A stretch of 64,000 nucleotides of DNA from Oceanispirochaeta sp. (GTDB lineage: Bacteria; Spirochaetota; Spirochaetia; DSM-2461). The translations under genes and the position numbers were made by a program. The stretch's first letter is position 1. Every line of letters begins with the position of its first letter. Shown piece by piece: positions 7,137-25,451 of this stretch. The notes under the pieces were generated by a model that was given only the letters and a program-made list of their open reading frames with translations, made no database searches and had not been told where the DNA came from. Location of the stretch: positions 256,001 through 320,000 of the forward strand of contig CAXXOA010000003.1 of assembly GCA_963666275.2 (NCBI GenBank), read 5' to 3'.

Positions 7137-7435
7137 TCACAGTTGGTACCTGAGGACGACTATTCCGCAATCAAAAGATCTGGATTCCACCAGTGTCAGG
7201 TCGAGCCTGGCGTTCAGGTCTCCGAATATGGGCAGTCCCTTTCCGATGGCACTGGGGTTAATGAAAAGAAAGAACTCATCTATCAGGCCGTTTTTGATTA
7301 ATCCGGAGACAAAAGCGGCTCCGCCGTAGGCAATCATGTCTTTTCCGGATTGGGATTTGAGTCTCTGTATTTCTTCCACCAGATCCCCTTTTGCCAGGAT
7401 TGTATTTTCCCACTGCGATGTTTCAAGGGTTTTTG
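7137..7435 (-). pseudogene. Displaced 3' half of the DHFR-like gene (copy of 12889-13182)
   Basis: Near-identical to the 3' half of 12878..13429; no 5' half present. Confidence 0.85.
7142..7435. repeat. 294-bp direct repeat, copy 1 (copy 2 at 12889-13182)
   Basis: Ungapped alignment at offset 5747; about 10 mismatches by eye. Confidence 0.95.
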
Positions 7436-12877: not shown

Positions 12878-13429
12878 TTATCCCGCCGGTTGGTACCTGA
12901 GGACGGCTATTCCGCAATCAAAAGACCTGGATTCCACCAGTGTCAGGTCAAGCCTGGCGTTCAGGTCTCCGAATATGGGCAGTCCCTTTCCGATGGCACT
13001 GGGGTTAATGAAAAGAAAGAACTCATCTATCAGGCCGTTCCTGATTAATCCGGAGACAAACGCGGCTCCGCCGTAGGCAATCATGTCTTTTCCGGATTGG
13101 GATTTGAGTCCCTGTATTTCTTCCACCAGATCCCCTTTCGCCAGGGTGGTATTTTCCCACTGCGATGTTTCAAGGGTTTTTGTGAATACAACTTTCTTTG
13201 TGTTTATGAAGGTCTCAGCGCCTTCTTCTTCGGGGTGGGAGGTCCAATAGGGTATGAATCCTTCTGCTAGTTTTCTTCCAAGGACTATACAATCAACATT
13301 TTCAGTGATCTGCTCCACGTATTTTTTGAGTTCCTTGTCCCAGTCAAAGTTAACCCAATCCATTTCGCCTTCAGGTCCGGCAATATACCCGTTTACTGTC
13401 ATTTGAACCTGGAGTTTCAGTTTTCTCAT
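12878..13429 (-). CDS. Dihydrofolate reductase-like protein (RibD C-terminal domain)
   Basis: MT.NGYIAGP.G..DW, LGRK, YGGA, GLIDE....NP...G.G.PIF; AAGGAG RBS. Confidence 0.88.
   Translation of the reverse strand: MRKLKLQVQMTVNGYIAGPEGEMDWVNFDWDKELKKYVEQITENVDCIVLGRKLAEGFIPYWTSHPEEEGAETFINTKKVVFTKTLETSQWENTTLAKGDLVEEIQGLKSQSGKDMIAYGGAAFVSGLIRNGLIDEFFLFINPSAIGKGLPIFGDLNARLDLTLVESRSFDCGIAVLRYQPAG
12889..13182. repeat. 294-bp direct repeat, copy 2
   Basis: Matches 7142-7435. Confidence 0.95.
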
Positions 13430-13610: not shown

Positions 13611-13703
13611 TTTTAACACCGATTTCTGCTGTTTGCCGAAAGCTGGCGTGGTCGTTGCAAATGCAAGGACCATGACAGTAGGCAAATCAGTAGCAAATTT
13701 TTG
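13611..13703 (-). repeat. attC-4 (99 bp when rejoined with 15902-15907; split by intron 1)
   Basis: Top strand ATATAAC-AAAAATTT(G)CTACTG(A)TTTGCC...GGCAAACAGCAGAAAT-CGGT-GTTAAAA. Confidence 0.85.
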
Positions 13704-15901
13704 GTACGCCTGACATGGCAATAAACTTATGAGGTGAAAGTCCTCTACAGCTACCCACGTATAGTAAACATGCTATACCAACTGTTAGCCGACGGCAAGG
13801 GCAATTCCGTGAGGAATTGTCTGGAGGAAGCCTGAGTGCAAAACCGGGAGCCCATGTACAAGAATGTGATATGGAATGCGAGTCACGCAGCATTCCACCC
13901 CCCAGTTCTGGAGGCTGGTCGCAAACAAGTTTGCTGCTCGCCCATGCAGCCTAGGGTGAGTCAGCCAATGATGACGATGCCCCGTGGGTGAGGGATAGGG
14001 TAAATCACAGGGTTGTCCGGCCCTGGTCGTAAACTTCGTTTACTGCTCGGGTATGCATCCGAGGAAAGTTTATTGTCTTATTCGGGAACCGAAAGCCGTT
14101 TCGGCTGGAGGTTGTTATTCAAGCGGCATGGCCGCAACCTTAACGAACACAGATCGAAGCAGCTTGCTGCGTAGAACTTTATTCGGGGAGATCTGTCTGC
14201 AAGGCGGTAACGGCGGTTTGACCGTGAGAATCCGGAGGATACCGGGGTAACAAATCCAGGCCTATCAGGGGATGACACTCTGATAAGGAGCCGTTTATAC
14301 GGAACACAAAGAAGTCGTCACAGCGATTCAAACCGGATGATACAGCGTCAGCAGGAGTAATTCTACTGATAAGCAGACAGAAGTCAGCAGAAGGCATAGT
14401 AGCCAACGCCCGGAGTAATGTCCGGTTCATGGTGAAGGTCTGAACATTTCACAAGGAGGAGCCTTATGGTTCTCAAAGGAACAATTTCAGTTTATGCCGG
14501 AATCACTTTTGGCGGACCATGGAGAAACCAGCCTTGAACGAATCTATGATGGATTTGATTTTATCCTCTGAAAATATGCACAAAGCCTGGAAACAGGTCA
14601 AACGCAATGGAGGTAGCCCTGGAATCGACGGTATCACTGTCGAGAAGTTTCCAGGATATCTGAAAACCAGATGGCCTAGAATCAAACGAGCTTTGCTCAA
14701 CGGGTACTATGTACCTTCTCCGGTGCTGAGGGTAGAAATCCCGAAGAAATCCGGAGGAAAACGGATGCTGGGAATCCCGACAGTTCTAGACAGGGTTATC
14801 CAGCAGGCTATTTCACAGGTTCTGAATCCCATATTTGATCCGGATTTCTCGGAGCATAGCTATGGATTCAGACCGGGAAGATCGGCTCACGGAGCAGTGA
14901 AACAGGTAAATCAACATGTCAAATCCGGGTATAGATACGCCGTGGATCTGGACTTGGAAAAGTTCTTTGATACAGTTAATCATGATATCCTGATGCATTT
15001 TGTGGCTGTAAAAGTCTGGGACAAATCTGTCCTCAGACTCATCGGCCGTTACCTGAGAGCCGGTATTCAGTTGGACAATGGAAAAGTGATTCCTACAGAC
15101 ATCGGCACACCCCAAGGCGGGCCCTTATCACCTCTGCTTTCCAATATCCTCCTTGATCGGTTGGATATGGAACTGGAGAGAAGAAATGTGAGGTTCGCAC
15201 GGTATGCAGATGACACTATCCTTTTAACGAAGAGATTGTGTGATGCTAGGAAGATCCTACAGGAAGTTTCAATATTTCTGGTAAGGAAATTGAAATTGGT
15301 AGTGAATCAGGAGAAAACGAAAGTTGCAAAGATAAGGGAGTGCAGTTTCCTGGGATTCACATTCAAGGGTAAGAAGATTCGCTGGACAGAGTCGTCCTTT
15401 GAGGATTTTCGGTATCATCTGAAATATCTGACAAGGCGTTCCTGGGGTGTTTCCATGGAATACAGAATCGGGAAACTCAATGAGTATATCCGGGGCTGGA
15501 TGAACTACTATGGGATCTCCCAATATTACAGCCCTTTACAGAACCTTGATGACTGGCTCCGTAGGAGGATTCGCATGTGTTACTGGAAACAGTGGCGATA
15601 TCCCAGAACGAAAGTCAGGAAACTGATGGAACTGGGGATTCCGAAAGATTTTGCCATTATCACCGGTGCCAGTAGTAAATCCTATTGGCATCTCTCCAAG
15701 TCTTACGCTACCAATGCAGCTATGTCCAATAAATGGCTGGAAGAGCAGGGATTGGTCAATATCAAATATCTGTGGTGTAAAGCCCAGGGATATATCTGAT
15801 CAAATCAGGATTTCGTTTGCTCCATGGAGTGAACCGCCCCGTGCGGACCCGCATGCGGGGTGGTGTGGGGGCTGGAGGTTAAAAGCCTCCGGCTACCCGA
15901 T
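13704..15901 (+). mobile_element. Group II intron, class C (IIC-attC type), copy 1, 2198 nt
   Basis: 5' GTACGCCTGACATGG; DV GAACCGCCCCGTGCGGACCCGCATGCGGGGTGGTGTG with CGC triad; 3' end CTACCCGAT; removal restores TTG|TTATAT of attC R''. Confidence 0.92.
14519..15799 (+). CDS. ltrA: Group II intron reverse transcriptase/maturase, no endonuclease domain
   Basis: PGIDG, R.LGIPT..DR..Q.A, SYGFRPGRS, DLEKFFD, GTPQGGPLSPLLSN, RYADD, FLGF, GW.NYY. Confidence 0.95.
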   Translation: MEKPALNESMMDLILSSENMHKAWKQVKRNGGSPGIDGITVEKFPGYLKTRWPRIKRALLNGYYVPSPVLRVEIPKKSGGKRMLGIPTVLDRVIQQAISQVLNPIFDPDFSEHSYGFRPGRSAHGAVKQVNQHVKSGYRYAVDLDLEKFFDTVNHDILMHFVAVKVWDKSVLRLIGRYLRAGIQLDNGKVIPTDIGTPQGGPLSPLLSNILLDRLDMELERRNVRFARYADDTILLTKRLCDARKILQEVSIFLVRKLKLVVNQEKTKVAKIRECSFLGFTFKGKKIRWTESSFEDFRYHLKYLTRRSWGVSMEYRIGKLNEYIRGWMNYYGISQYYSPLQNLDDWLRRRIRMCYWKQWRYPRTKVRKLMELGIPKDFAIITGASSKSYWHLSKSYATNAAMSNKWLEEQGLVNIKYLWCKAQGYI

Positions 15902-15915
15902 TTATATAGCAATTA

Positions 15916-16725
15916 TTAGCTCATACCTTTAATATTTACAGAACATTCATCTACTGTTTTTATTTCTTCAAACAAATCAATGTTTGTAAATTTTAACGAA
16001 GCCTTTGATTCGCCCAATACAATTGGTTCACAAATTGAATATAATTCAAAATCTTTACCAATTGTTATACCAAGCTGCAAACCTCCACCTATACTTGAAT
16101 ATGTACCTTCTTCAACAATTTTTGAAATTACATGATAGGGAGCTCTACTTGATAAAATTGGATGGCTAGATTCCTTTTTAAATTTCTGAATTCTTTGTTT
16201 TATATCATCTTTATGAGCACCAAGGAGAATAAAATCATTTTCACATTTCTTAGTCACATCTTCAGATAATTCTCTATTGTCTTTTCCTATTTGTGTTCTA
16301 TAGATTTTATAATCATTGTTCTTTTTGCAGTAACCAAATGAAGAGAACTCAACAGGATAGTTATTAACTATTGGTGTCGTATATTGCTTAACAATTCTAG
16401 TAACAAGATTGTGGATTTCTTCAATGCATGGTACCTTTTTATTTACTGAAATTAAACTTGTAAGGATTTTGTTTAAATTTGTTGTAACAATGAGAGCAAC
16501 TAAAGCTGATCCAGCAAATGCTATTCCAATTTTTTGGTCCCAGTATATCCGATTAAATAATCCGGAATTATCTGATTCCTTACAAATGACCTGTAATTCA
16601 TAAATTTTTGGCCCAAAATCTGTTAGAATCCTATTTGATTCTTGGCCTGATGAATATCTGGTATCAGAAACAGCCCAAAGTGATCTAGATTCATAATTAT
16701 TTATCCATAGTGCAATAGTCGACAT
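15916..16725 (-). CDS. Cassette ORF: proteasome-beta/HslV-like Ntn-hydrolase-fold protein (putative)
   Basis: N-terminal S-T, SDTRYS, PKI, IGIAFAG and SIGG.LQ in beta-subunit order; GAGG RBS; AT-rich. Confidence 0.6.
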   Translation of the reverse strand: MSTIALWINNYESRSLWAVSDTRYSSGQESNRILTDFGPKIYELQVICKESDNSGLFNRIYWDQKIGIAFAGSALVALIVTTNLNKILTSLISVNKKVPCIEEIHNLVTRIVKQYTTPIVNNYPVEFSSFGYCKKNNDYKIYRTQIGKDNRELSEDVTKKCENDFILLGAHKDDIKQRIQKFKKESSHPILSSRAPYHVISKIVEEGTYSSIGGGLQLGITIGKDFELYSICEPIVLGESKASLKFTNIDLFEEIKTVDECSVNIKGMS

Positions 16726-16796
16726 ATTTTAAACCTCAAAAAAAATTATTCATGCCTAAGTTTGTATCTTTCAAGATTGATGATTTTTAAAAGAAT

Positions 16797-17516
16797 CTAT
16801 ATTTCAGAATATTTTCTTCTAATGCTATGTAAGACTTCAAATCCAATTTGCCTCATAGCTGGAAGATGAGGTTTTGAGTCTATATCTGAGAATACAAGTG
16901 TTTCTGGTTTTGTAATATCTCCTTTGTATGTTCGGATTCCAGTTTTATTTGTCTTTGATAACTCATAGTATTTTTCATCTTGTTTAGGATCGACATGAGC
17001 ACCACCATCAGTATCAGCCATATGAAGAACTAGTTCTTCTCTTGTGTATGTTATTGTATCAGAATCTACTAAAATTACTTGATTCCACCAATTTTTAAAT
17101 TCGATAAAATTCCAAGGCCTACTTTCTTTAAAATTTTCTAATGCTGGTTCAAATTTAAAGGTCAATGATTCAGGATTTTTGCTAATTTTTTGCATTGTTA
17201 GTGGAGATGAAAACATTTTTACTCCTGTCTCAACAATAGGTATAGCAGTATTAAGCATCATTAGATTGGAGTCAATTATTGATAATAAAGACTTACTATT
17301 TTTTGTATCATGAAATAAGATTCTAAGTGTTAGAGCTATTCTTTTTGATTCTATAAGATTCCCCTGATCAAATGAATTGCATGATGTATCTAAAAATGTA
17401 ATTTGCTCTTTTAAGGAATCTAGCAGATCTTTTGAGGTTAAGGGTCTTTTTCCCAAGCAACATCTTTTATATTTAATTCCGCTACCACATGAACATGAAT
17501 CATTTCTACTAGTCAT
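16797..17516 (-). CDS. Cassette ORF: SEC-C motif protein with an unassigned C-terminal domain (DGGAHVD)
   Basis: RNDSCSCGSGIKYKRCC = SEC-C; WWNQ...TREELV..MADTDGGAHVDP; AAGG RBS. Confidence 0.75.
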   Translation of the reverse strand: MTSRNDSCSCGSGIKYKRCCLGKRPLTSKDLLDSLKEQITFLDTSCNSFDQGNLIESKRIALTLRILFHDTKNSKSLLSIIDSNLMMLNTAIPIVETGVKMFSSPLTMQKISKNPESLTFKFEPALENFKESRPWNFIEFKNWWNQVILVDSDTITYTREELVLHMADTDGGAHVDPKQDEKYYELSKTNKTGIRTYKGDITKPETLVFSDIDSKPHLPAMRQIGFEVLHSIRRKYSEI

Positions 17517-17584
17517 AATAAAACACCTTTATTATTAATAATTTAAAATAAGCTTGCAATGTAGTCGGACCCTACCCTTTTGCT

Positions 17585-17679
17585 ATATAACATTCTTTTA
17601 TGCTGCTGCTCGTTAAGTTGGCGTGGTCATTGCGCATTGCAATGAGCATGACAATAGAGCAGACAGTATCAAAAGCTTG
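17585..17679 (-). repeat. attC-3 (101 bp when rejoined with 19812-19817; split by intron 2)
   Basis: Top strand ATATAAC-AAGCTTTT(G)ATACTG(T)CTGCTC...GAGCAGCAGCATAAAAG-AAT-GTTATAT; the cassette gene's TAA lies within R''. Confidence 0.88.
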
Positions 17680-19811
17680 GTACGCCTGACATGGCAATAA
17701 ACTTATGAGGTGAAAGTCCTCTACAGCTACCCACGTATAGTAAACATGCTATACCAACTGTTAGCCGACGGCAAGGGCAATTCCGTGAGGAATTGTCTGG
17801 AGGAAGCCTGAGTGCAAAACCGGGAGCCCATGCACAAGAATGTGATAGAAGGCCCAGTTCCGGAGGCGAGTCAGCCAATGATGACGATGCCCCGTGGGTG
17901 AGGGATAGGGTAAATCACAGGGTTGTCCGACCCTGGTCGTAAACTTCGTTTACTGCTCGGGTATGCATCCGAGGAAAGTTTATTGTCTTATTCGGGAACC
18001 GAAAGCCGTTTCGGCTGGAGGTTTTTATTCAAGCGGCATGGCCGTAACCTTAACGAACACAGATCGAAGCAGCTTGCTGCGTAGATCTTTATTCGGGGAG
18101 ATCTGTCTGCAAGGCGGTAACGGCGGTTTGACCGTGAGAATCCGGAGGATACCGGGGTAACAAATCCAGGCCTATCAGGGGATGACACTCTGATAAGGAG
18201 CCGTTTATACGGAACACAAAGAAGTCGTCACAGCGATTCAAACCGGATGATACAGCGTCAGCAGGAGTAATTCTACTGATAAGCAGACAGAAGTCAGCAG
18301 AAGGCATAGTAGCCAACGCCCGGAGTAATGTCCGGTTCATGGTGAAGGTCTGAACATTTCACAAGGAGGAGCCTTATGGTTCTCAAAGGAACAATTTCAG
18401 TTTATGCCGGAATCACTTTTGGCGGACCATGGAGAAACCAGCCTTGAACGAATCTATGATGGATTTGATTTTATCCTCTGAAAATATGCACAAAGCCTGG
18501 AAACAGGTCAAACGCAATGGAGGTAGCCCTGGAATCGACGGTATCACTGTCGAGAAGTTTCCAGGATATCTGAAAACCAGATGGCCTAGAATCAAACGAG
18601 CTTTGCTCAACGGGTACTATGTACCTTCTCCGGTGCTGAGGGTAGAAATCCCGAAGAAATCCGGAGGAAAACGGATGCTGGGAATCCCGACAGTTCTAGA
18701 CAGGGTTATCCAGCAGGCTATTTCACAGGTTCTGAATCCCATATTTGATCCGGATTTCTCGGAGCATAGCTATGGATTCAGACCGGGAAGATCGGCTCAC
18801 GGAGCAGTGAAACAGGTAAATCAACATGTCAAATCCGGGTATAGATACGCCGTGGATCTGGACTTGGAAAAGTTCTTTGATACAGTTAATCATGATATCC
18901 TGATGCATTTTGTGGCTGTAAAAGTCTGGGACAAATCTGTCCTCAGACTCATCGGCCGTTACCTGAGAGCCGGTATTCAGTTGGACAATGGAAAAGTGAT
19001 TCCTACAGACATCGGCACACCCCAAGGCGGGCCCTTATCACCTCTGCTTTCCAATATCCTCCTTGATCGGTTGGATATGGAACTGGAGAGAAGAAATGTG
19101 AGGTTCGCACGGTATGCAGATGACACTATCCTTTTAACGAAGAGATTGTGTGATGCTAGGAAGATCCTACAGGAAGTTTCAATATTTCTGGTAAGGAAAT
19201 TGAAATTGGTAGTGAATCAGGAGAAAACGAAAGTTGCAAAGATAAGGGAGTGCAGTTTCCTGGGATTCACATTCAAGGGTAAGAAGATTCGCTGGACAGA
19301 GTCGTCCTTTGAGGATTTTCGGTATCATCTGAAATATCTGACAAGGCGTTCCTGGGGTGTTTCCATGGAATACAGAATCGGGAAACTCAATGAGTATATC
19401 CGGGGCTGGATGAACTACTATGGGATCTCCCAATATTACAGCCCTTTACAGAACCTTGATGACTGGCTCCGTAGGAGGATTCGCATGTGTTACTGGAAAC
19501 AGTGGCGATATCCCAGAACGAAAGTCAGGAAACTGATGGAACTGGGGATTCCGAAAGATTTTGCCATTATCACCGGTGCCAGTAGTAAATCCTATTGGCA
19601 TCTCTCCAAGTCTTACGCTACCAATGCAGCTATGTCCAATAAATGGCTGGAAGAGCAGGGATTGGTCAATATCAAATATCTGTGGTGTAAAGCCCAGGGA
19701 TATATCTGATCAAATCAGGATTTCGTTTGCTCCATGGAGTGAACCGCCCCGTGCGGACCCGCATGCGGGGTGGTGTGGGGGCTGGAGGTTAAAAGCCTCC
19801 GGCTACCCGAT
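17680..19811 (+). mobile_element. Group II intron, class C (IIC-attC type), copy 2, 2132 nt
   Basis: Same boundaries and DV/DVI as copy 1; 66 nt shorter in domain I. Confidence 0.92.
18429..19709 (+). CDS. ltrA: Group II intron reverse transcriptase/maturase (protein identical to copy 1)
   Basis: Same 426-aa translation with RYADD. Confidence 0.95.
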   Translation: MEKPALNESMMDLILSSENMHKAWKQVKRNGGSPGIDGITVEKFPGYLKTRWPRIKRALLNGYYVPSPVLRVEIPKKSGGKRMLGIPTVLDRVIQQAISQVLNPIFDPDFSEHSYGFRPGRSAHGAVKQVNQHVKSGYRYAVDLDLEKFFDTVNHDILMHFVAVKVWDKSVLRLIGRYLRAGIQLDNGKVIPTDIGTPQGGPLSPLLSNILLDRLDMELERRNVRFARYADDTILLTKRLCDARKILQEVSIFLVRKLKLVVNQEKTKVAKIRECSFLGFTFKGKKIRWTESSFEDFRYHLKYLTRRSWGVSMEYRIGKLNEYIRGWMNYYGISQYYSPLQNLDDWLRRRIRMCYWKQWRYPRTKVRKLMELGIPKDFAIITGASSKSYWHLSKSYATNAAMSNKWLEEQGLVNIKYLWCKAQGYI

Positions 19812-21839
19812 TTATATCTCACTTTCCAATGTCCTTATTTCATCCTCTAAAAAAAGAATTTCCTTTTCTTGTTTGAGTTTTGTCTCATTACTAAAGTTAT
19901 TTCTTTTAAATATTTTCCTTAATATATTCTCATTTTTACGTGATAATATTTTTTTAATATTTGGAGTTCGTTCTTTTATTATGATAAAAATTAGAGAAAG
20001 AATATGAGGAGAAAAGGATAATAGAGTTGCATACTTCTCGACACTATTCCAGTTTATTCTTTTAATTGCTAAAAATGAAATTAAGTAAATCATAACTATT
20101 GTAAAAACTAAAATATGTTTTCTTCTATTAATTCTTTTATTAGCTAAGGCTCGAAGTTCTTTTTCATCATTGAGGGTTTTACTGAAATCAACTTTTAGTT
20201 TTTCTAGTAATATTTTTTTAGAACTGATTGAGCTTTTCGTTGCTTCGATGTATTTCAATTCTAAGTCACTCATTGATTGTTGAAGTTTACTATTCTTATC
20301 TTTATTGAGCTCTGCTTCCTGTTTAAAATGCTCTTCTTGAATAAGATATTTTTCTAAAGAATCTTCTGTAATATTAACCAATACTTCTTCAGCATTATCT
20401 TCATTAAGTATTTCTGGTTCTTTTCTTTTTTGTCTTAGATCATTAATACGATTATGCAATGTTTCTTTTGAAACTTTTTTTTGGTTAAACAGATTTTTTA
20501 CTTCTTCATACTCTTCATTAATAGAATCCCCTAAGTGTGCTGAGAGTGTTATTTTAGCTTTATTGACTACATCTACAGTATAAGGAGAATCCTGTTTACC
20601 AAAACCTTTATTCATTTTGAACCAGAATTTATTTACAAGAAAATCAAGATCTGTTGCTAAAGGGATTCCATTTTCTTCCCTAAATGATTTTGCTTCGTAG
20701 GAAATTTTAAGAGTAGTTGAAGTTCCCGTTAAAAGTATGAAGCGGGCATCCTCAAATCTATAAACAGTGGAGTTTTTCCTCAGAATATTTATATAATTTA
20801 AAAATCTAACATTATCCCTTATATCATCAAAGTCTTTTTCTTTCTCAATTTCTTCTATCTTATCCGAATCAATTAGATTATATTTATGATTTTTTTCTGA
20901 AAAATAATCTGACTCATCATCTTGAAAAATCCTATTTGTTTTGAGTAATAAATATAAATCAGATTTTTTTGTAAGTATATCTGATTTATCCTTAGCCCCA
21001 TTAAGAATTGAAGCCATAGCTGTATGTCCAGGTTTTAAGCTTTTTGTTCCCTGTTTTATTTTTTCAGCAATATAAAAGTAGCCTTCAACCTCATCTTTAA
21101 CTTCTTGGAAGTATTTTAAATGGATTTTTTCAGTTCTTTTATTAATTTCCTTAATATATGATAGTAAAGTATTAACTTGTCTTTTAAATATTGGTCCATT
21201 ATAACCAGCTAAATGAAAAAGTATTTCAGTATCCAAATATATGGTGAGTTCAGTATCCCAGGAGCCCATAAGTGAAGGATCTGTATATTTTATACCAGAG
21301 TATAGAACTACTCCTTCTTTTATACTTTGAAGATTATTATTAAACGCTTTATTCTTTTCATTCAAGATAATAAAAGTACTTATATAGTCTGAGTACTTAA
21401 ATCCATTTGTATTAAATAAAAGAAAATTACAAAATGAATTTGAAACATCCAATTTTTGGACATCAGAAAGTTTTGATTGTTGTTTTTCTTCGATAAAACA
21501 TATCAGTTGATCAATAATTGAATCAGTTTCATCAGTAACTGTTTTTTTCAGTTTTAAGATTTTAGAATTGGATTCAGCCTTTGAAATCACATTATACATA
21601 CCATATGATTTTTCTAAAAAATCAATTTTTTTAAGAGATGTTTTCACAACTGATAAAGGTAAATCGAAACTAAATTCTTCATTTATTTTTGTAGTAATCT
21701 CTTCAATGTTAAATCTATGGAGATTATTTATTATGATAGATTCTTTAGCGAACTGACGAACTACATCATAAATATCATGATCCTTTGCATACAATTCTTT
21801 AAAAATTACATATGAAGCTAAACACTTGTGATCTTTCAT
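19812..21839 (-). CDS. Cassette ORF: large protein with putative PIN-like domain, coiled coil and 2 C-terminal TM helices
   Basis: TIYLDTEILF (hhhDT), downstream acidic residues, FILLT; coiled coil around aa 490-570; two hydrophobic helices; starts 28 nt after the crossover. Confidence 0.65.
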   Translation of the reverse strand: MKDHKCLASYVIFKELYAKDHDIYDVVRQFAKESIIINNLHRFNIEEITTKINEEFSFDLPLSVVKTSLKKIDFLEKSYGMYNVISKAESNSKILKLKKTVTDETDSIIDQLICFIEEKQQSKLSDVQKLDVSNSFCNFLLFNTNGFKYSDYISTFIILNEKNKAFNNNLQSIKEGVVLYSGIKYTDPSLMGSWDTELTIYLDTEILFHLAGYNGPIFKRQVNTLLSYIKEINKRTEKIHLKYFQEVKDEVEGYFYIAEKIKQGTKSLKPGHTAMASILNGAKDKSDILTKKSDLYLLLKTNRIFQDDESDYFSEKNHKYNLIDSDKIEEIEKEKDFDDIRDNVRFLNYINILRKNSTVYRFEDARFILLTGTSTTLKISYEAKSFREENGIPLATDLDFLVNKFWFKMNKGFGKQDSPYTVDVVNKAKITLSAHLGDSINEEYEEVKNLFNQKKVSKETLHNRINDLRQKRKEPEILNEDNAEEVLVNITEDSLEKYLIQEEHFKQEAELNKDKNSKLQQSMSDLELKYIEATKSSISSKKILLEKLKVDFSKTLNDEKELRALANKRINRRKHILVFTIVMIYLISFLAIKRINWNSVEKYATLLSFSPHILSLIFIIIKERTPNIKKILSRKNENILRKIFKRNNFSNETKLKQEKEILFLEDEIRTLESEI

Positions 21840-21861
21840 TTCTTCCCCATTTTTTATGTAG

Positions 21862-22035
21862 ATATAACACTCTGATCACCTGCGCCCCGGCCTGGCCGCA
21901 GGACAGGTATTGGCGTTCTTCTTGCCATCATGGTAAAACATCTTTACTATATTGAGAAGCGATTATTTACTATTGAGTTGAAATATCAGCAAGAAGTATG
22001 ACAATAGGGGTGTCAGGTGCATCAGCATGTTATGT
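21862..22035 (-). repeat. attC-2, long type (174 bp)
   Basis: Top strand ACATAAC-ATGCTGAT(G)CACCTG-ACACCCC...GGGGCG-CAGGTGATCAG-AGT-GTTATAT. Confidence 0.85.
21922..21950 (+). promoter_or_regulatory. Candidate sigma70 promoter inside attC-2 (TTGCCA-N17-TACTAT)
   Basis: 5/6 -35 match, 17-nt spacer, TAnnnT -10; faces the plus-strand ORFs. Confidence 0.45.
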
Positions 22036-22167
22036 GAGCGTCCTTGCAGTAGTTTTGCCCCGAGCGAATATTACACTTAACAGATTATAATCTGAATTCT
22101 GTCTTCATTTGTATTTTAATGGTAATTTTAAGATATGCTTTATGATTATTGAGAAATAGGAAGTCTG

Positions 22168-22746
22168 ATGCAAAAAATAAATATTTCATTGATATTTTTC
22201 TTTCTCTTCTGTTTTTATTCTTGGGGTGAAAGCAGAATTGATGAATATCGTAGGAATTATAGTACAGCTATTATTAGCAATGATACGGAAATTATAGAAA
22301 ATACACTTTCTTTTATAGATAAATTAATCGATCAAAATGAATTTAAGGATATCTCTAGTATTTATTACAACAAAGCTCAATTGCTTAATAAGCTTAAAAG
22401 AACTGATGAAGCTATAGAGGCATTGGAGCATCTGGAATTCCCATTAAATAAATTTTATCAAGCTTCACTATTCGTCAGGATTGGACAAGAAGAAGATGCA
22501 ACAAGCTTATTTGATTCTGTTATTAATTTGTACTTAACTACTTTGAAAGAAGACGAAAGAACTAGAGACAATATACGTTCTTTATATGAAAGTATCATTT
22601 TAGCTAATATCTTAGCTGATAGAGATCAAAGACAAGTTGAAAAGATGATAAGAGATGACATAAGGCTTAGCGATTCAGATATCACTAGATTAAATAAAGC
22701 AAAAGAAGCTCAAAAGGATGCTTTATTGCAAGGGTTATGGCCATGA
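22168..22746 (+). CDS. Cassette ORF (reverse orientation): secreted TPR-like helical protein
   Basis: Signal peptide MQKINISLIFFFLFCFYSWG; YYNKAQLL..L.R.DEA TPR-like; AGGA RBS. Confidence 0.7.
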   Translation: MQKINISLIFFFLFCFYSWGESRIDEYRRNYSTAIISNDTEIIENTLSFIDKLIDQNEFKDISSIYYNKAQLLNKLKRTDEAIEALEHLEFPLNKFYQASLFVRIGQEEDATSLFDSVINLYLTTLKEDERTRDNIRSLYESIILANILADRDQRQVEKMIRDDIRLSDSDITRLNKAKEAQKDALLQGLWP

Positions 22747-22871
22747 ATAAACGGGTAGCATTGCTACTGATAACCGGATATCTGTCTACTGCTGTTAATA
22801 TATGATATATTCAAATTAGGATTCTATTACAATGTGTATTTTTAGAGTTAAACGTCATTGAAGAGAGCTTT

Positions 22872-23195
22872 ATGGATCAGAAATTATTTTACAAAAAAAA
22901 ATATCTTTACAAGATATATATGATATTACTATTCTTGAGAATTTCTTCATTTTCAATCTCTGTTTTATGGGTCCTTAGTTCTATAATAATTTTGTTTGAA
23001 CCATTTCTGTCATCGTTCCAAGTTGGTCGTGATGGTTCTATCGCGTTATTTAGTTTTGCGATTGATAATATTGGAAGAAATATCAGTATTTTAGCAATAT
23101 TAGTTACTATAACAATATTTTTTGTCTTCTTATCAAAAGCTTTCAAGAAACGGAACCATGAAATAATTGATTATTGGAGTTTGGGAAGGTATTAA
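22872..23195 (+). CDS. Cassette ORF (reverse orientation): small 2-TM protein
   Basis: Two hydrophobic segments; follows 22168..22746. Confidence 0.55.
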   Translation: MDQKLFYKKKYLYKIYMILLFLRISSFSISVLWVLSSIIILFEPFLSSFQVGRDGSIALFSFAIDNIGRNISILAILVTITIFFVFLSKAFKKRNHEIIDYWSLGRY

Positions 23196-23379
23196 ATGAT
23201 AATTACCGAGATTTATGGTAAATCGGTGCAACGACTTGGGCTTGGATTAAGCAAAATTTTCTTGTTATCAAAATACTTAATACTTCAGCAGAAAATAACT
23301 ACTGCTAAGGTTCAATTTTGTCTAATTTGAAATTTATGCTAACAAATTCCTTCTGAAGATTAACGAAATTTTCGAGTCC

Positions 23380-23551
23380 ACATAACACCAAAATATGCTG
23401 CGCAGCGGCCTGGCTTGCCAGGTATAGGCGCTTTTCTTGCCCCTTTATTCTAAACAGCTATTCCTTATTTGAGAAGAACAATTCCTTTGTCGAAGCAATT
23501 TCTGCAAGAAATGTGATCTATAGCTTCGACTGCATCATTTTTTTGTTATGC
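23380..23551 (-). repeat. attC-1, long type (172 bp)
   Basis: Top strand GCATAAC-AAAAAAAT(G)ATGCAG...CAGCATATTTTGGT-GTTATGT; internal sequence related to attC-2. Confidence 0.85.
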
Positions 23552-23779
23552 CGCAGCATTTTGTATGCCCGGAGGCCATGAAAAGGTTGAAGATTTCCAC
23601 AATCGTAGGTGAAGGCGAATTCCCTATATTCTCTACCCATTGCCAGCCGCAACCGGCGTCGATAAGTTAGTAATCAGTGTAGGTAACGAGCCATGAAACC
23701 AGGATCAAAACCCTCATAATCTGAAAAGTTACGATCAAAAAGTCAGGAAATCTACCCGTACAAAATGTGTCGATATAAC
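23545..23779 (+). ncRNA. Candidate structured RNA filling an ORF-less cassette
   Basis: Four nested helices; several non-Watson-Crick positions become G.U pairs on the plus strand; no ORF of 60 aa or more. Confidence 0.5.
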
Positions 23780-23836
23780 ATAACTTATTATGCTGTTCAG
23801 TATAATAATACTGAACTCCCTTTCACCCCCTGTCAA
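23773..23836 (-). promoter_or_regulatory. Candidate attI core (GCATAAT-N7-G|TTATAT) with Pc-like elements and a 22-bp palindrome
   Basis: GTT box with no attC hairpin upstream; minus-strand TTGACA (23831-23836), GTGAAA-N16-TATACT; GTTCAGTAT-N4-ATACTGAAC at 23795-23816. Confidence 0.5.
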
Positions 23837-24047
23837 TAACAGAAAAAAAAGAATTATCTAGACATTTACGCAGTGATAACATCCATATCCAACAGTTATC
23901 TAGACGTCTATATAATTCCGGGAATTGTTGCCAGATGGGGGAGCGGAGGGAATATACGTCTGTAAGAAAGGATATTCCGTGAAACCGGAAGAGGGATTTT
24001 TTTTTCCCGGCCGGGAATGTCCCCCGGCCGGGATGGAGTAGACGGGA

Positions 24048-25451
24048 TTAGCCGATAGACTTCCAGGCATGCCCTTCCATCCGGTTGGTCATGCCTCCGA
24101 TTTTTGCAAGATCTTCCGCGGCTGCCTGGGCGTCGGAGAGGATCTTCTCTTCTTTCACCGGGCCTGTGTACTTTCCGGCCTCCACAAGGATTTTGCCGTC
24201 TACAAACACAGTATCCACATTCTTCTCCGACGAGGAATAAACAATGGTGGACACAGGGTTATGAAGGGGGATCGACTTGGCCGAGCGGGCGGGGTTAAAA
24301 ATCAGGATATCCGCTTTTTTCCCCGCTTCCAGGGAGCCTATCTCCTTGTCCATACCCAGGCACCGGGCGGCGTCTATGGTGGCCATTTCCAGAACCTTTT
24401 CGGCGGTCATAATGGTGGGATCACAGCTCACGGCTTTATGGATCAGGGCGGTCATCTTCATCAGTTCGATCATGTCCTGGCAGTTGTTGCTGGCCGCACC
24501 GTCCACTCCCAGGCTCACGTCGATGCCTTTTTTGAGCATCGCCGGGACAGGGGCGGTCCCTGAGGAGAGGTACATATTGCTCACCGTATTGTGGGAAACC
24601 TTCATGCCGTATCGGGCGGCGGTTTTCTGATCCTCTTCGGTCAGGTAGACGCAGTGGACCATAAGGATATCCGGACCGGTGAGGCCCAGTTTTATCATCA
24701 CATCCATATCGGGGACGCCGTGGAGTTTTTCCGCCGCCTGCCTGTCAAAGGGGGTTTCCGAGATATGCACGGTGAAGCCGGTTTTGTAGGTATCCTTCAG
24801 CTCCTTCAGCATCCTTAGGTTCTTTTCCGAGTTGGACCAGATGGCCGCCGGAGCCAGCCACAGACCGATCCGGCCGTCGTAGCTCCCGCTGTACCGGTCC
24901 CACAGGTCGATAAAGTCCTTCTCTATGACAGAGCTCTCCTGCATGATCTGCCGGGGAACGCCGAACTCTTCGCCTGTGTCCATGCAGCCCCGGCCCAGAA
25001 TGCCCCTGATGCCGATGTCGCCCATGGCTTTGATCACCCCTTCGGACAGCCCTTCGGCGGGGTGGGGGTACATGTAGTCCAGAGTGGTGGTTACCCCCGA
25101 CTGGAGGCTCTCCAGAGAGCCTGCCATGGCCGCTTTGTAGCAGTGGTCGGGGGTCAGATTCTTCGCTGCCGGAAAGGTCATGGTGGCCAGCCATTTGTCC
25201 AGGGCCATATCGTCCCCCAGGCCTTTCAGCAGGTTTTGAAAAAGGTGAGTATGGGTGTTGATCAGACCGGGCAGAACAATTTTGTTCCGGCAGTCGATCA
25301 CCCTGTCGGCACCAGCTTCCTCCGATGGAGTCAGATCCCTGACGATCCCTTCAATCCGGTCGTCCCGGATAATAACAGACCCCCCGTAAAGGATCTCCCT
25401 GTCACTGTTCAAGGTCAGAACAATGCCGCCTTTCAGAATCGTCACACCCAT
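24048..25451 (-). CDS. Amidohydrolase (MtaD/SsnA/AtzA-like deaminase)
   Basis: PGLINTHTH, HISET, MVHCV, LGVDGAASNN, GSLEAGKKAD. Confidence 0.9.
   Translation of the reverse strand: MGVTILKGGIVLTLNSDREILYGGSVIIRDDRIEGIVRDLTPSEEAGADRVIDCRNKIVLPGLINTHTHLFQNLLKGLGDDMALDKWLATMTFPAAKNLTPDHCYKAAMAGSLESLQSGVTTTLDYMYPHPAEGLSEGVIKAMGDIGIRGILGRGCMDTGEEFGVPRQIMQESSVIEKDFIDLWDRYSGSYDGRIGLWLAPAAIWSNSEKNLRMLKELKDTYKTGFTVHISETPFDRQAAEKLHGVPDMDVMIKLGLTGPDILMVHCVYLTEEDQKTAARYGMKVSHNTVSNMYLSSGTAPVPAMLKKGIDVSLGVDGAASNNCQDMIELMKMTALIHKAVSCDPTIMTAEKVLEMATIDAARCLGMDKEIGSLEAGKKADILIFNPARSAKSIPLHNPVSTIVYSSSEKNVDTVFVDGKILVEAGKYTGPVKEEKILSDAQAAAEDLAKIGGMTNRMEGHAWKSIG

Follow-up and report, generated by a model that had tools for sequence, protein, structure and literature searches.

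An integron array without intI in Oceanispirochaeta: probably a satellite of a single integrase encoded on another contig

Introduction

How can a cassette array that starts with an attI site be explained where there is no integrase gene beside it? The question is raised by a 64,000-nucleotide stretch of an Oceanispirochaeta genome (contig CAXXOA010000003.1, here called the window), in which four integron cassettes follow a copy of an attI region. The window is C3:256001-320000 of the host genome (G000), which comprises 5.27 Mb in three contigs, C1 to C3; positions given below without a contig are those of the window. Our results make it quite probable that the array is one of four satellites of a single integrase, IntI, which is encoded on a different contig.

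Arrays with two attC sites or more and no intI nearby are known as clusters of attC that lack an integron integrase (CALINs), and half of them have been reported from genomes that encode an IntI elsewhere (PMC4889954). Mobilization of CALINs in trans has been proposed in several places (PMC4889954, PMC9668308, 10.1101/2025.06.18.660453), and the CALIN literature names, as one scenario, that one of several integrons loses its intI. CALINs are discussed there as donors or relics, and the attI search described in PMC4889954 relies on exact matches to classes 1 to 3 only.

Results

The array and its attI head

The window contains a genuine four-cassette, attI-bearing integron array without intI. 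The initial annotation had proposed four palindromes bounded by R'' and R' boxes, and folding, profile hidden Markov models (HMMs) and a covariance model (CM) find all of them at those positions on the + strand, which is the bottom strand. Once introns had been cut out by script, the bottom strands folded into attC hairpins with an R box, a 2x2 central spacer and a bulged L box (z scores are relative to 200 dinucleotide shuffles). Starting from the head of the array, the sites are attC 1 (23380-23551, intact, 172 nt; z -2.2, CM E 0.059, HMM E 3.5e-45), attC 2 (21862-22035, intact, 174 nt; z -6.2, CM E 8.9e-6, HMM E 1.9e-41), attC 3 (17585-17679, with its last 6 nt beyond an intron at 19812-19817; z -6.4, CM E 4.1e-19, HMM E 2.9e-12) and attC 4, the array's last (13611-13703, with its last 6 nt beyond an intron at 15902-15907; z -5.3, CM E 1.5e-17, HMM E 1.6e-11). 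The CM was built from 17 sites of the genus and family, all outside the window, and shows compensatory changes in 23 of 35 pairs; across the 64 kb it matched, beyond the four sites, only the reverse strand of one of them. The HMMs were trained without the window sites, and the two long window sites have about 94% identical relatives in the training set. One attC of the intI array is 93.6% identical to attC 1, sites of two other arrays are 94% identical to attC 2, and attC 3 has an intron-free counterpart at C1:1290316 (94.6% identity).

The cassette limits first proposed (23386-23778, 21868-23385, 17591-21867 and 13617-17590) are exact at all four borders. That each leading box complements the cassette's own R'' holds for cassettes 2, 3 and 4 (8, 9 and 12 nt) and is weaker for cassette 1 (5 nt). 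The annotated stop codon within an R'' is also there, the 675-aa open reading frame (ORF) of cassette 3 ending at 19812. The bodies of cassettes 2 to 4 have a GC content of 27-30%, the genome 48%. No insertion sequence (IS) lies at either end of the array, and no IntI-like sequence was found by tblastn or blastn within 25 kb of it. The 269 bp from the crossover at 23779 to the end of the amidohydrolase gene at 24048 leave no room for intI, as had been noted. With four attC sites and no integrase nearby, the array falls within the definition of a CALIN.

What sets it apart is its head. The attI platform occupies 23779-23917 on the - strand. Its G|TT crossover lies at 23779 and is followed by a block of conserved sequence; the platform also has two TTATCTAGAC boxes (23854-23863 and 23896-23905, - strand), and all 8 copies of TTATCTAGAC in the genome fall within five such heads. 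Over 140 nt, window positions 23778-23917 are 88.6% identical to the 140 bp upstream of intI (head at C1:1063336), and the homology ends at TATAATT, 11 bp short of the intI start in the complete integron. A sequence model of nine intI-linked heads, among them the genome's own, matches the window head with E 2.3e-4. At the intI side the leading box of the first cassette matches its own R'' at the same AAC junction as in the window, which fixes the crossover at 23779; the candidate attI of the initial annotation is therefore real and its crossover correctly placed. Mismatches between the window head and the intI head are concentrated outside the conserved positions: 3 of 77 columns conserved across the other three heads differ, vs 13 of 63 elsewhere (Fisher p 0.003). 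The window thus has the attI of a complete integron, with its G|TT crossover, and lacks the adjacent intI. A scan for a Pc promoter reading into the array gave one site with 9 of 12 matches on the - strand (23826-23799), and the 3 sites found are at chance level (1.1 ± 1.1 in shuffles). We also considered a dif site at the head and dropped it: the spacer at its centre measures 4 bp, and five array heads have the motif.

One integrase and five platforms

Only one gene in the genome scores above the cut-off for integron integrases (TIGR02249). It lies at C1:1063487-1064710, on a contig other than that of the window, and encodes an intact 407-aa frame with the RHRY motifs and the integron-specific insert; a genome search for a recombinase with this insert had been suggested by the initial annotation. 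This intI is divergent from an array of 8 attC sites, which ends beside two tRNA-like genes (C1:1032050-1032220, read by eye).

Besides the window and intI heads there are copies at C1:1288088, C2:1179972 and C3:205217. An IS66 with a duplication of 8 bp interrupts the C3:205217 copy. The nine-head model finds these five sites in the genome at E<1e-3, and the next at E 0.44. Profile HMMs detect 28 attC sites, all in the five arrays: 8 by intI and 6, 5, 5 and 4 at the satellites (13 of the 28 matches are themselves HMM training sequences, and one stray match has E 0.39). There is no intI remnant within 25 kb of any satellite.

How were these platforms made? The C2 and C3:205217 heads are 83% alike and share an 88-bp flank that is absent elsewhere in the genome. 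As this flank is unique and not that of intI, at least one intI-less platform gave rise to another, and at least one round of platform copying probably did not include intI. For the window copy, precise loss of intI following the copying of a whole integron is the alternative. Two satellites that differ in age lose the homology at nearly one position (within 3 nt). The arrays contain many ISs. The shared flank itself is a GC-rich, folded element (C2:1180147-1180234 and C3:207758-207844), and a similar stretch follows the adhE-side head of G003.

Two other features of the satellites deserve mention. Cassette 2 of the window (21868-23385), C3:203937-205222 and C2:1169806-1173755 form a cassette family with conserved ends, a 174-nt attC and variable short genes in reverse orientation. 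A long attC-free stretch at C3:195219-203915 holds several low-GC genes, one of them matched at 36% by a cassette protein of G004; this stretch may be a defence cassette of several genes, going by a resemblance to TIR proteins.

Satellites and shared cassettes in relatives

Besides G000, eight of nine congeners carry intI once (the exception is G010), as do 18 of 24 family genomes sampled. We examined 11 relatives for satellites. In seven of them, heads are followed by attC sites on the right strand (three each in G002 and G003, and in G004, G006, G009, G013 and G017), and each of the seven has one intI elsewhere in the genome. In G006 the satellite region even has more attC matches than the intI array. 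An adhE-side satellite is common to G000 and G003 and the C2 satellite to G000 and G004, with differing cargo.

The locus of intI varies among the congeners. The genes after intI differ among most of them, and oppF, the gene next after intI in G000, has other genes after it in 5 of 5 congeners. IntI identity declines with relatedness (78, 61, about 53 and 43-45%). Together these observations suggest that intI is vertically kept yet changing place.

The most direct evidence for exchange comes from two relatives. A 1,536-bp AAA-ATPase cassette of G013 is found 100% identical within the intI array and in first position at a satellite head, joined exactly at AAC. In G003 the ORF-less cassette, of the family of window cassette 1, stands first at both the intI head and a satellite, in copies that are 98.8% identical. 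Since the G013 cassette is present at a satellite attI as well as in the intI array, loading of satellite attI sites in trans is likely.

Several features of these arrays are of interest in their own right. In G013 a 399-bp cassette is repeated in tandem, at the satellite as well as in the intI array (L024, L177). In G009 (L176) the first cassette comprises about 7 kb of type I restriction-modification-like genes. One and the same ubiA-like gene comes after an attI head in G006 (L161) and G009 (L176), and intI lies beyond it only in G006. In G002 an IS91-like Y2 transposase gene is apparently packaged between attC sites (L174:14256-15761, L232:12963-14467); each of the three arrays that were compared has this unit, which in one case stands directly at a satellite attI.

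Group IIC introns with a shifted insertion register

Both attC 3 and attC 4 are interrupted in R'' by a group IIC intron on the + strand. Intron copy 1 (13704-15901, 2,198 nt) splits attC 4 and carries a reverse transcriptase (RT)/maturase gene at 14519-15799 and a predicted exon-binding site 1 (EBS1), CAAT, at 13966-13969. Intron copy 2 (17680-19811, 2,132 nt) splits attC 3, with its RT/maturase gene at 18429-19709 and a predicted EBS1 CAAT at 17876-17879. Both are inserted at TTG|TTAT, opposite to the cassette orientation, and both encode a 426-aa group II RT/maturase with only the RVT_1 and GIIM domains and no endonuclease domain. The assignment is supported by TIGR04416 above cut-off and by Rfam matches to group II D1D4. 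The closest relatives of the intron proteins are records of Spirochaetia, Spirochaetaceae and Oceanispirochaeta; one genome of the same genus encodes a protein identical to that of Oceanispirochaeta. The best plasmid matches, apart from one at 58%, are introns of class 1 integrons. In a tree of 48 rows (a quick IQ-TREE search with midpoint root) a spirochaete clade (SH-aLRT 100) lies within a joint group with the class 1 integron IIC-attC introns (99). By this phylogeny and their insertion sites, both introns belong with the group IIC-attC lineage.

All 11 intron 5' junctions in the genome lie in R'' of an attC bottom strand, opposite to the cassettes, and the existence of an intron-free homologous attC confirms the insertion point G|TT. 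The published IIC-attC target is TTGT/T, called the majority case in PMC7923331, and we find it in the five plasmid copies examined. The spirochaete introns depart from this consensus, which marks them as a variant and does not exclude them from IIC-attC. Among 20 distinct spirochaete 5' junctions 18 are TTG/T, one ATG/T and one GTTA/T (19 end in G), and 22 of 25 non-spirochaete junctions end in GT; kin in these counts are not independent.

An aligned loop of domain I may explain the difference. Loop and target pair as ACAA/TTGT, CAAT/TTG, TAAC/GTTA, ACCA/TGGT and CACA/TGTG; the spirochaete clade has CAAT as its predicted EBS1, the GTTA copy has TAAC and one TGGT intron has ACCA. This series leads us to infer that the loop is EBS1 and sets the insertion register. 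Some observations do not fit: the L072 and L081 introns combine ACAA with TGGT, in G000 the -4 base usually mismatches (leaving a 3-bp pairing), and the EBS1 assignment rests on alignment.

The introns have probably moved recently. The two window copies differ at just 4 of the last 1,900 nt, and a copy at C1:1056714 is 99.8% identical over 1,723 nt; given such near-identity, attC 3 and attC 4 were recent targets. Near-identical copies occur in four arrays, which suggests recent spread. Because the intron parts G from TT in R'', the split attC 3 and attC 4 would be poor IntI substrates, even if part of their R box is still able to pair.

The array at C1:1288000-1306000 alone has no intron copy, and it alone has its attC bottom strand on the strand of negative GC skew. 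This would fit insertion into the lagging-strand template, as far as a single array can tell. Domain I of intron copy 1 contains an insertion of about 42 nt with hairpin character (13913-13954). Other copies (440-aa variants) carry a near-identical sequence within their RT gene, in frame, and L065 has one at a deletion junction, each time after a CCGGAGG-like site; it is possibly a tiny mobile insert.

Cassette contents and surroundings

All four cassettes are on the - strand. Cassette 1 (23386-23778) consists of an ORF-less body (23552-23778) and a long attC; its longest ATG frame is 30 codons. Its family has two invariant blocks (23611-23623 and 23642-23655), and the spacing between them breaks any frame. 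The family is genus-restricted and often takes an array's first position: homologues occur in 4 of 10 congeners, first at heads of G001, G002, G003 and G009. We found the motif on 3 metagenome contigs, each time beside attC-like sites, and in none of 400 other genomes sampled from the phylum. There is no Rfam match and no convincing sigma-70 promoter, and folding gives just 6-7 predicted pairs with almost no covariation on either strand, hence no clear conserved fold. ORF-less cassettes carrying promoters or RNAs are known from Treponema and Xanthomonas integrons and have been proposed to act from first position (PMC8876359). By analogy, a regulatory role of cassette 1 at first position is plausible.

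Cassette 2 (21868-23385) carries two genes in reverse orientation, 22168-22746 (TPR-like) and 22872-23195, and its ends are similar to cassettes of two other arrays. The two sister cassettes at C3:203937-205222 and C2:1169806-1173755 have a short inter-gene motif and one gene module in common; a pattern search of window cassette 2 for this motif gave no match.

Cassette 3 (17591-21867) holds the 675-aa gene (19812-21839, 27% GC) whose stop lies within R''. Its protein has no Pfam or PADLOC family, and its neighbours in the Atlas are hypothetical, with one named putative PIN-like. Marine metagenome contigs from a single other study carry the gene at about 100% identity; at the low depth there, the matches listed include no piece of the head or flank. 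Cassette 4 (13617-17590) encodes a SEC-C motif protein (16797-17516) and a 269-aa protein (15916-16725), the Atlas neighbours of which include a cluster with 14% Proteasome-family members (a lead only). As PADLOC gave just SEC-C-motif or weak matches, we claim no defence system among the window cassettes.

Neither flanking gene has an orthologue in 10 congeners: the RibD-like gene turned up in none of them, and for the amidohydrolase five of the ten have paralogues (33-39%) and nothing closer. Further out, a 294-bp, 96.6% identical duplication of a RibD_C gene end (7142-7435 and 12889-13182) brackets an IclR regulator, a sialidase-like gene and a tripartite transporter block.

Discussion

Our preferred explanation is that a 140-bp copy of the genome's attI region heads the four attC-bounded cassettes, and that IntI from the other contig likely inserts and excises cassettes here in trans. 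IntI would bind the repeated GTTAT/ATAAC boxes of the head and use the G|TT crossover at 23779 to recombine attC sites as folded bottom strands. All five arrays would thereby draw on one cassette pool. A spirochaete sub-lineage of IIC-attC introns inserts in R'' exactly at G|TT, predictably through a change of the EBS1 loop from ACAA to CAAT. Such insertion would disrupt the R boxes of attC 3 and attC 4; cassettes 3 and 4 would then be fixed where they are, and cassettes 1 and 2 would stay mobile. That the window array itself is active is an inference.

One could argue instead that the array is a frozen relic, i.e., a complete second integron that lost intI by deletion and is no longer serviced. 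Introns interrupt two of its four attC sites, the arrays of G000 have no identical cassette in common, and loss of intI is a published route to CALINs (PMC4889954). The different loci of intI across congeners would also fit several integrons with differential loss, as would the ubiA-side head, which has intI nearby in G006 and not in G009. A relic of this kind does not explain, however, why head motifs are conserved while spacers drift, or why two satellites of unequal age lose homology at points that agree within 3 nt, with no intI remnant. Nor would it account for the 100% identical cassette at a satellite attI in G013, or for near-identical introns in recently targeted attC sites. We therefore regard the relic as unlikely. 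Between the two options offered by the initial annotation, an orphan attI serviced in trans or a deleted intI, the conserved head motifs and the identical cassettes in relatives favour the former.

It is very unlikely that array and head arrived together on an accessory island from another spirochaete, with a use unrelated to the resident integron. The flanking genes without orthologues, the RibD duplication around the neighbouring transporter block and the cassette 3 gene in another study's marine contigs could be taken as signs of import. The window head nevertheless has its nearest match in the intI head of G000 (88%), with 72% the best among the heads of 40 relatives, and its attC types and introns are common to the other four arrays. 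Least credible of all is an ordinary CALIN with no true attI, produced by insertion at a genomic attG or by a split of the main array. Both routes are published (PMC4889954; 10.1101/2022.09.11.507474) and the arrays are rich in ISs, but neither end of the window array has an IS. The array begins with a 140-bp homologue of attI and the intI array keeps its own head, a homology that already contradicts this explanation.

The satellite explanation has to contend with results of its own. No window cassette has an identical copy in another G000 array (the best match is 87.6% over 259 nt). Cassette 1, the one next to the head, has a leading box that equals its own R'' over 5 nt only, and its attC folds weakly. 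Among the relatives there is no second head in G008, and head matches in G001, G007 and G018 come without attC in the stretches examined. Both G002 and G004 have a broken IntI and yet still have satellites. We found no shared cassette in the parts of G006 that were compared, and dropped the shared stretches of G002 as cassette exchange, for they are mostly IS91-like and IS21 DNA able to move alone. Contigs of seven runs show no excised circle or rearranged allele, though contigs drop rare forms. A joint of 22060 to 23775, considered as an excision product, is explained by the paralogous first cassette of another array.

A wider reading, which we put forward only tentatively and think somewhat doubtful, is that the integron of this spirochaete family is distributed by design. 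The 140-bp attI module would be copied to new sites on the chromosome without intI, ending at a fixed box; a relocating IntI would load several platforms from a common pool; and an intron re-aimed to the exact G|TT junction of R'' would fix chosen cassettes, through inactivation of their attC sites.

Arrays without an integrase are commonly regarded as relics or passive donors, and standard tools are blind to attI sites outside classes 1 to 3. If the attI of such arrays still works, a single integrase has several first positions under its control, and many of the CALINs on record may be sites of live capture. With five natural variants of attI for its one IntI, this genome also offers a ready set for defining what attI requires. 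The introns, in turn, offer a natural series of target registers over R'' (G|TT, GT|T and GTTA|T) with matching changes in predicted EBS1, so that positioning of IIC-attC introns by EBS1 pairing can be tested vs positioning by distance from the hairpin. Our literature search returned no paper on several attI-bearing arrays sharing one integrase and none on a shifted IIC-attC register, of which the target-site tables of primary intron papers may already list some cases. CALINs and their mobilization in trans are known; the layout of several attI sites with one integrase and the shifted register would be the new parts.

Comparison with known systems

Like the ORF-less cassettes of Treponema and Xanthomonas, cassette 1 has a non-coding body and a normal attC. 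It differs from them in the two invariant blocks of its family and the lack of a convincing promoter. The introns resemble IIC-attC introns such as S.ma.I2 (PMC3001079, PMC7923331) in the RT/maturase without endonuclease and in bottom-strand insertion in R'' opposite to the cassettes. Their proteins are 50-52% identical to those of class 1 integron introns, and they have the same GTACG...CCCGAT ends. Unlike the published introns, those of the spirochaete clade insert one base earlier (G|TT), and one divergent spirochaete copy inserts two bases later (GTTA|T), each matching its predicted EBS1.

A sedentary chromosomal integron combines intI, attI, the promoter Pc and an attC array, and the C1 locus is an example, with which the window has the attI region, attC types and introns in common. 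In contrast to such an integron, the window has no intI, the cassettes are spread over five loci, and the neighbours of intI vary between congeners. In Xanthomonas, by comparison, ilvD marks one ancestral integron locus (10.1101/2025.06.18.660453). With four attC sites and no intI nearby, the window array is like a CALIN. It differs from one in that each array here keeps a full attI head, in that there are four satellites in one genome, and in that relatives likely show loading at the satellite attI.

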